Below are positions 30,573 through 34,985 of a DNA stretch of 35,826 bases, piece after piece (within the stretch, counting starts at the first letter, position 1; each line of letters starts with the position of its first letter). Made by a program: the position numbers and the translations under genes. Below the pieces are notes generated by a model. That model was not told the DNA's origin. It saw nothing but the letters and a program-made list of their open reading frames with translations, and did no database searches. The DNA comes from an uncultured Clostridium sp. (lineage in GTDB: Bacteria; Bacillota; Clostridia; TANB77; CAG-508). The stretch covers positions 1 to 35,826 of the forward strand of contig CAOJZE010000002.1 of assembly GCA_948466095.1 (NCBI GenBank), given 5' to 3'.

Positions 30573-30601
30573 TTGACAAGAAAGAGAAAAGATAATATAA
30601 T
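30573..30601 (+). promoter_or_regulatory. Consensus sigma-A promoter TTGACA-17-TATAAT for tRNA-Lys
   Basis: TTGACA at 30573-30578, TATAAT at 30596-30601, about 25 nt upstream of the tRNA. Confidence 0.7.
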
Positions 30602-30625: not shown

Positions 30626-30701
30626 GGGCCATTAGCTCAGTTGGTAGAGCAGCAGACTCTTAATCTGACGGTCGGAGGTTCGAATCCTCTATGGCTCACC
30701 A
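30626..30701 (+). tRNA. tRNA-Lys (anticodon CTT), CCA encoded
   Basis: Cloverleaf: acceptor GGGCCAT/ATGGCTC, D arm GCTC/GAGC, anticodon loop CTCTTAA, variable CGGTC, T arm GGAGG-TTCGAAT-CCTCT, discriminator A, then CCA. Confidence 0.9.
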
Positions 30702-34555: not shown

Positions 34556-34654
34556 ATTTACCTCTTTTGAATTTTTTATTTTATTTCTTATTTATTTTAC
34601 TATATAATGCTTCTGTTTGTCTATCTTTTCTTTGATTTTTACTATTTATTTTAT

Positions 34655-34685
34655 AGAAAAATGAGACAGAGCTTTACTCTATCTC
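34655..34685 (-). terminator. Leaky terminator/attenuator hairpin between the precursor ORF and the modification genes
   Basis: Minus strand: GAGATAGAG-taaag-CTCTGTCTC (one mismatch), followed by ATTTTTCT. Confidence 0.5.
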
Positions 34686-34708
34686 AAGTGATTTGTAAAA
34701 TTATCAAT

Positions 34709-34819
34709 TTAGTCTAAATCGCCACTTCCATAATTGTCTTCACGGCTTGGTGTTGATTTTGCATTAGATGCTATCATTGGTAGAATTACTGAATCTAAGC
34801 CATCATAATTTGTTCCCAT
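34709..34819 (-). CDS. Candidate RiPP precursor peptide, 36 aa: MGTNYDGLDSVILPMIASNAKSTPSREDNYGSGDLD
   Basis: Not in the ORF track because it is too short. The ATG is 8 nt after AGGAGG. It is the first gene behind a perfect promoter and lies directly upstream of the kinase/PqqD/ABC/NTase genes. Confidence 0.65.
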   Translation of the reverse strand: MGTNYDGLDSVILPMIASNAKSTPSREDNYGSGDLD

Positions 34820-34856
34820 TTATATTACCTCCTAATTTTACTAATCCTATATTTAT

Positions 34857-34885
34857 ATTATAACAAAAGCAACTCATTTTGTCAA
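34857..34885 (-). promoter_or_regulatory. Perfect sigma-A promoter TTGACA-17-TGtTATAAT driving the RiPP-like operon
   Basis: Minus strand: TTGACA (34885-34880), a 17-nt spacer ending in TGT, TATAAT (34862-34857). Confidence 0.7.
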
Positions 34886-34961: not shown

Positions 34962-34985
34962 AAAAGCAGGAAAGACCTGCTTTTA
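34962..34985. terminator. Terminator hairpin after the upstream surface-protein gene
   Basis: AAAGCAGG-aaagac-CCTGCTTTT. Confidence 0.6.

Follow-up and report, generated by a model that had tools for sequence, protein, structure and literature searches.

The analyzed window is a 35,826-nucleotide stretch of DNA from an uncultured Clostridium sp. (GenBank assembly GCA_948466095.1, contig CAOJZE010000002.1). Near one end, a small open reading frame (ORF) on the minus strand is followed on its 3' side by four genes on the same strand, which encode a kinase, a PqqD-type protein, an ABC exporter and an NTP_transf_5 protein (Table 1). The translation of the small ORF, MGTNYDGLDSVILPMIASNAKSTPSREDNYGSGDLD, agrees exactly with the peptide given in an earlier sequence-only reading of this DNA. 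The AGGAGG element was described there as well placed before the ATG, as its spacing bears out. The promoter, whose -10 hexamer ends 37 nt from the ATG, was not mentioned. A bidirectional terminator ends the gene upstream, and the small ORF is thus equipped with a promoter, a ribosome-binding site and a terminator of its own. No match to the peptide was obtained in Pfam or NCBIfam. Gene callers already annotate the ORF, and 22 public metagenomic contigs carry the identical called peptide.

Table 1. Positions of the features discussed in the text (window coordinates)
Feature	Position	Strand	Basis
Probable precursor peptide gene (lppA-like), 36 aa	34709..34819	-	ORF translation; alignment of relatives
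Shine-Dalgarno AGGAGG	34828..34833	-	read from sequence; 8 nt ahead of the small-ORF ATG
Sigma-70 promoter of the small gene, TTGACA-17-(TG)TATAAT	34857..34885	-	consensus score 12/12; extended -10 TG
Bidirectional terminator-like hairpin	34962..34984	both	lies between the upstream gene, which it closes, and the small-gene promoter
Intrinsic terminator, 10-11-bp hairpin (34686..34662) and T-run	34657..34686	-	folding, shuffles, conservation
Weaker promoter-like site, TAGACA-18-TAAAAT	34594..34623	-	score 10/12; putative function
HprK-fold P-loop kinase (LppK/ScmC-like), 239 aa	33836..34555	-	fold match, motifs
Discrete PqqD-type RiPP recognition element (LppB-like), 88 aa	33580..33846	-	PF05402, 6e-15
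MsbA-like ABC exporter (LppD-like), 559 aa	31865..33544	-	ABC_membrane and ABC_tran
NTP_transf_5 nucleotidyltransferase-fold protein (LppN/PsmN-like), 378 aa	30742..31878	-	PF14907, 4.9e-45

The proteins encoded by the cluster

The sequence-only reading had recognized an HprK-like/PqqD pair next to the small ORF. Both assignments hold, with HprK/P structures as the top fold matches of the 239-residue protein and PF05402 in its neighbor. The AlphaFold model of the kinase has a pLDDT of 86. Its best fold matches in the PDB are to HprK/P (E ~1e-5, probability 1.00), with modest TM-scores of 0.37-0.47. A sequence search of the PDB with the kinase returned nothing meaningful. The Walker A motif GTGKST is followed downstream by an NDD motif, invariant in the alignment. 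The kinase shares with HprK/P its catalytic-domain fold, P-loop and downstream acidic motif. However, the identity is 12-15% and the N-terminal domain of HprK/P is absent. Their contexts also differ, HprK/P belonging to the ptsH/ccpA regulon and the window kinase to a putative peptide-modification operon. Its best NCBIfam match is ScmC (TIGR04249, 3.5e-6), at 26.6 bits against a family cut-off of 125. A weak similarity to HprK-related kinase A is likewise below the curated NCBIfam cut-offs. The precomputed Pfam domain of the kinase is PF27840, and the local Pfam library gave no hit.

Sequence matches of the PqqD-type protein in the PDB include the lasso peptide B1 protein TbiB1 (5v1u, 2e-4), which is the best, and LppB (9x8z, 0.01). 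The protein is 47% identical to a Dehalobacter recognition element, WP_015045167, which is part of the dataset of Popov et al. Only 35 nt separate its gene from that of the exporter. The exporter contains ABC_membrane (residues 24-290) and ABC_tran (residues 354-503) domains; no N-terminal (C39) peptidase domain was found in the Pfam and NCBIfam scan.

The cluster is bordered by a tRNA-Lys gene and a convergent VanW/G5 gene on one side and by a terminator on the other. The tRNA-Lys(CTT) gene at the distal cluster end (30626-30701, plus strand) is preceded by a perfect TTGACA-17-TATAAT promoter of its own (30573-30601). The upstream neighbor of the small ORF (35048..35826, minus strand) is truncated by the window end. 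It includes 6.3 copies of a perfect 24-nt tandem repeat (35676-35826), which code for a (PSSSSSPA)n linker; a conserved C-terminal domain follows the linker. The homologue in the related locus L014 is a 500-residue secreted protein with a Sec signal peptide, a weak Big_3 match and a Pro/Thr-rich linker. Homologues of this gene, with 22-66% identity, are located 5' of the small ORF in 11 of the 18 related loci described below. Farther away, most ORFs of at least 90 residues in the first 27 kb (1-27000) are on the minus strand, and many of those scanned had no family match. They include an internalin-J-like repeat protein of 1048 residues (11309-14455), an SH3-domain protein (23289-24863), an HTH_36 protein (21463-22164) and a 754-residue protein (6621-8885) with a below-cut-off match to SpaH/EbpB-type LPXTG pilins, all on the minus strand.

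Conservation in related gut Clostridia

A kinase-based scan with one genome per species identified 80 loci, all in genome bins of gut-associated Clostridia. Several of the relatives' bins are from mouse samples. The kinases of the closest 18 loci (L011-L028; 19 counting the window) are 57-93% identical to that of the window. The order small ORF, kinase, PqqD, ABC exporter, NTP_transf_5 is kept in all 18, and in each a small ORF preceded by a Shine-Dalgarno sequence is located directly 5' of the kinase gene. The sequence-only reading had made its proposal depend on such conservation of the small ORF beside homologous clusters, and the proposal is thus supported. Nearly all related loci keep AGGAGG or GGAGG ahead of the small ORF. 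A perfect TTGACA-17-TATAAT promoter is found 34-47 nt 5' of its ATG in 19 of 19 loci, which suggests high expression of the small gene. The flanks of the relatives, about 7 kb, contain no extra conserved gene. A phmmer search with a single peptide against 1.8 billion representatives recovered two true relatives only, P0121 and P0123.

Judged by substitution rates, the small peptide is under purifying selection in closely related pairs, with dN/dS of 0.34 between the window and L014 and 0.15 between L011 and L023. Peptide pairs with different core types have dN/dS near 1 or above.

Probable leader and core of the peptide

Alignment of the window subgroup revealed that M1, L8, P14 and M15 are invariant, in an N-terminus of the form xYDxLDxxIxPM. 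Next come a stretch rich in Ser and Thr and an acidic, hypervariable tail. From this pattern, we infer a leader of about residues 1-15, a Ser/Thr-rich junction of residues 16-25 and a variable core, REDNYGSGDLD, of residues 26-36. The leader-like N-terminus and the Ser/Thr-bearing C-terminal part noted in the sequence-only reading are consistent with the conserved N-terminus and hypervariable C-terminus across the loci. Such a combination of a constant leader and exchangeable cores is typical of RiPP precursors.

The REDNYGSGDLD tail is present in the window, L014, P0121 and P0123 behind differing leaders and junctions. A different tail is present in L011, where the kinase is 93% identical to that of the window. 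The first residues of the variable tail are RED in the window (34709-34744, minus strand) and RGD in L015 and L016. Kinase identity does not predict which tail a peptide has, suggesting that cores are exchanged by recombination. No invariant serine that would mark a phosphorylation site was found across the clade alignment. Seven of eight close relatives keep S25, and the C-terminal variable part of L015 contains neither Ser nor Thr.

The terminator hairpin and transcription of the operon

A hairpin with a 9-bp stem and a T-run, 24 nt after the stop codon, had been described in the sequence-only reading. The hairpin and T-run are indeed present; the stem has 10-11 pairs, including one G-U, and starts 22 nt past the stop codon. 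It closes a loop of 3-5 nt and is followed by TTTTTCT. Its folding energy is -15.7 kcal/mol (z = -2.5 versus shuffles), and an equally good terminator-like hairpin arose in 0 of 200 dinucleotide shuffles of the 153-nt intergenic region. A terminator hairpin is located between the small ORF and the kinase gene in 17 of the 19 loci (16 of 18 without the window), and at most 1.5% of shuffles match these 17 hairpins. Its distance from the stop codon is 1-95 nt in the relatives. Stem sequences vary between loci, and six of the ten consensus pairs show compensatory double changes among 16 aligned hairpins. The hallmarks of an intrinsic terminator, a G+C-containing stem-loop, a U-run directly after it and a conserved position, are all found.

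The most plausible role of the hairpin is that of a leaky terminator, which would uncouple precursor and enzyme expression. An Rfam scan of the whole window identified the tRNA-Lys only, with no known riboswitch or leader RNA at the hairpin, and no alternative antiterminator pairing was found in the fold. Hence the element formerly called an attenuator hairpin is kept as a terminator, and regulated attenuation is not. The spacer between the terminator and the kinase gene is longer in the window's subgroup than in L017-L028. In L017-L028, the kinase start codon comes just 19-43 nt after the hairpin, too close to accommodate another promoter, and transcription of the enzyme genes there must come from read-through. 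Seven of the eight loci of the window's subgroup (the window, L011, L012, L013, L015, L016 and L023) contain a TAGACA-17/18-TAAAAT element 26-99 nt, mostly 36-38 nt, past the hairpin. It is absent from the L017-L028 subgroup. Because of this weaker promoter-like site, read-through is not the sole possible source of enzyme mRNA in the window's subgroup. The RiPP-operon arrangement proposed in the sequence-only reading, with an excess of precursor over enzyme mRNA, is supported at the sequence level by the hairpin in 17 of 19 loci, its compensatory changes and the read-through required in L017-L028.

Comparison with LPP clusters and other known systems

Linear polyphosphorylated peptide (LPP) clusters, with the gene order lppA-K-B-S-D-N, were described by Popov et al. 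(Nat Commun 2026, PMC13381572) in Bacillota, among them Paenibacillus alginolyticus. They encode a precursor, an HprK-like kinase, a discrete recognition protein, a SipW-like signal peptidase, an MsbA-like pump and an NTP transferase. LppK adds several phosphates onto core Ser3, LppS cuts the leader, and the product remains linear (PMC13381572). In the only LPP reconstitution, carried out in a heterologous host, LppN showed no activity (PMC13381572).

The window cluster resembles LPP clusters in its order, with the precursor gene first and adjoined by that of an HprK-like kinase, followed by a discrete PqqD-type recognition element, an MsbA-like exporter and an NTP transferase. Neither contains a macrolactam cyclase, and both have precursors with a conserved N-terminus and a variable C-terminus. 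Unlike LPP clusters, the window cluster does not encode a SipW-like leader peptidase, although one may be encoded outside the window. Searches (tblastn) with LppS (WP_029196374) and two other S proteins gave no hit in the window or L001-L028, except for chance matches of one query with E above 1. The leaders also differ. The LPP leader is YxxPxVLxHQxIxFETxxS, whereas the window leader, MGTNYDGLDSVILPMIAS, follows xYDxLDxxIxPM, with YDGL in place of YxxP and no FET. The window precursor has 36 residues compared to about 72 in the characterized LPP case, and hosts of the window type are uncultured gut Clostridia. Since two defining features, the S peptidase and the leader motif, are absent, the window cluster is not a strict LPP member and is described as working like an LPP cluster, by analogy with the characterized system. 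The search of Popov et al. was seeded on the peptidase gene LppS, which defined the LPP family (PMC13381572), so clusters of the window type could not have been found by it.

The more distant kinase relatives, with 43-52% identity, are located in A-K-(D)-B-S clusters and are of the true S type. An adjacent ORF of 150-180 residues with a GxSMxP motif is found in 46 of these 62 loci, and the four sampled match archaeal-type signal peptidase I (TIGR02228). The three S-protein tblastn queries hit 21-46 of the 62 loci; the characterized LppS matches ORFs in 21 of them, with E down to 1e-11. A recognizable nearby precursor with a YxxPxL leader, for example MKLYNKPELNVEKFDVEDVITxS, is present in 17 of the 62. 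The S and NTP_transf_5 genes are almost mutually exclusive in the gut loci: L011-L028 have N without S, and the S-type loci among L030-L090 have no N, except L055. Bare kinase-PqqD-signal-peptidase triads are found in many gut Clostridia (L041, L043, L044, L047, L049, L066, L070, L073 and L089, around 7000-8400), with no adjacent YxxP precursor and no exporter. The gene directly before them may, judging by its C-terminal sequence, encode a methylenetetrahydrofolate reductase-like protein. The published LPP clusters of Bacilli contain both S and N (PMC13381572).

Lasso peptide clusters of the paeninodin and pseudomycoidin type (PadeK, PsmK, PsmN) share with the window an HprK-like kinase, a B1/PqqD protein, an ABC exporter and an NTP_transf_5 protein. 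Their chemistry consists of serine polyphosphorylation and the attachment of hexose to the phosphate. In pseudomycoidin, the kinase polyphosphorylates a serine, and PsmN is needed to add one to two hexoses onto the phosphate (PMC6993621). However, cyclase C and the B2 peptidase of these clusters are absent from the window, and the residue phosphorylated in the lasso peptides is a C-terminal Ser, whereas the window peptide ends in Asp. The SynChlorMet cassette also has an HprK-related and PqqD-like pair, ScmC and ScmD (TIGR04248), the latter a weak match of the window PqqD protein. Both scores are far below the cut-offs and no radical SAM/SPASM gene (ScmE/ScmF) is present in the cluster, and this assignment was rejected.

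Alternative explanations

Attenuators have a similar layout, with a short ORF and then a terminator ahead of an operon, and in L017-L028 the operon has no promoter of its own. The small ORF would then encode a cis-acting regulatory leader peptide whose translation controls the hairpin through ribosome-mediated attenuation, and it would not be an enzyme substrate. However, with the stop-to-hairpin distances given above, a terminating ribosome would not consistently overlap the hairpin, and the fold offers no antiterminator. The peptide is under selection at the amino-acid level with a leader/core pattern. In addition, the PqqD protein and the peptide kinase need a peptide substrate, and no other candidate is present. 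We consider a regulatory leader peptide very improbable. The probability that the ORF arose by chance in AT-rich intergenic DNA is close to negligible. It has only 36 codons and no family match, but the ORF, its Shine-Dalgarno sequence, the perfect promoter and the terminator are conserved where the kinase is only 57-93% identical. Together with the purifying selection in close pairs, this conservation contradicts a chance ORF, which was rejected.

The peptide could instead be exported unmodified, as a signal or bacteriocin, with the kinase, the PqqD protein and the NTP_transf_5 protein acting elsewhere, for example on the Ser-rich secreted protein encoded upstream. The (PSSSSSPA)n linker of that protein and the homologues in 11 of 18 clade loci favor another substrate, as does the location of the Bacilli LPP clusters among surface-polymer genes (PMC13381572). 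This is nevertheless improbable, as the L014 homologue of the upstream protein carries a Sec signal peptide and a terminator stands between the upstream gene and the cluster. Every locus of the clade has the small ORF, which is not true of the upstream gene, and the characterized HprK-like kinases that depend on a recognition protein all act on an adjacent small precursor. We assign a still smaller probability, only a few chances in a hundred, to a lasso peptide precursor with its cyclase and B2 peptidase encoded outside the window. The kinase, B1-like PqqD, exporter and NTP_transf_5 genes are those found as accessory genes in paeninodin- and pseudomycoidin-type clusters, and the best PDB match of the PqqD protein is a lasso B1 protein. 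But no asparagine-synthetase-like cyclase or transglutaminase-like B2 peptidase was found among the window ORFs scanned with Pfam and NCBIfam, on which ground the lasso assignment was rejected. The borders of the cluster and the flanks of the relatives leave no sign of further genes belonging to it, and the window leader has neither the YxxP motif nor the penultimate Thr.

Proposed mechanism

The small ORF is very probably a real gene whose peptide is modified, most likely by Ser phosphorylation, and exported via its four neighbors. Ser phosphorylation of the window peptide is supported by the chemistry of homologous systems (PMC13381572; PMC6993621). We think it likely that the small ORF is precursor gene A of a five-gene RiPP operon, A-K-B-D-N, which acts as follows. 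Each chemical step and the choice of serine are modeled on homologous systems, and the starting points are the observed anatomy, conservation and family assignments.

The consensus promoter and strong ribosome-binding site would yield an abundant short precursor mRNA, most transcripts stopping at the intrinsic terminator. Read-through, together with the weaker downstream promoter in the window subgroup, would provide lower expression of the four enzyme and export genes. The PqqD-type protein is assumed to bind the xYDxLDxxIxPM leader and to present the peptide to the HprK-fold kinase. Because the window leader has no YxxP, its recognition may differ from that in published structures. The kinase would then phosphorylate a serine, possibly several times; the likeliest site is in the junction (S18, S22 or S25). 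Another group, a hexose in the case of pseudomycoidin, is probably attached to the phosphate by the NTP_transf_5 protein. Its role is uncertain, given that LppN was inactive in the sole LPP reconstitution. Finally, the MsbA-like pump would export the linear product. No leader peptidase is encoded in the cluster, and the leader would be either kept or removed by an enzyme encoded elsewhere.

Discussion

Our analysis suggests that the cluster is a gut-Clostridia variant of the LPP family described in 2026, without its leader-cutting enzyme. The general principle is already known. The window shows a compact five-gene relative that has no such peptidase and whose leader is different.

A further-reaching proposal, which we regard as rather unlikely, is that the window clade represents a separate class of leader-peptidase-independent phospho(glyco)peptides in gut Clostridia. 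The NTP_transf_5 enzyme, present in the window clade and absent from the S-type gut clusters except L055, would install the class-defining modification. Acidic cores of 11-17 residues, several starting with RGD or RED, would be swapped between lineages, and the peptides would be exported with or without the leader to act on the host or on neighboring bacteria.

Mining seeded on the peptidase under-counts clusters of the window kind. The 36-residue precursor with its 10-residue Ser/Thr junction is a small, tractable system for studying the product of the kinase and the nucleotidyltransferase, and it could show how a recognition element reads a leader that has no YxxP.
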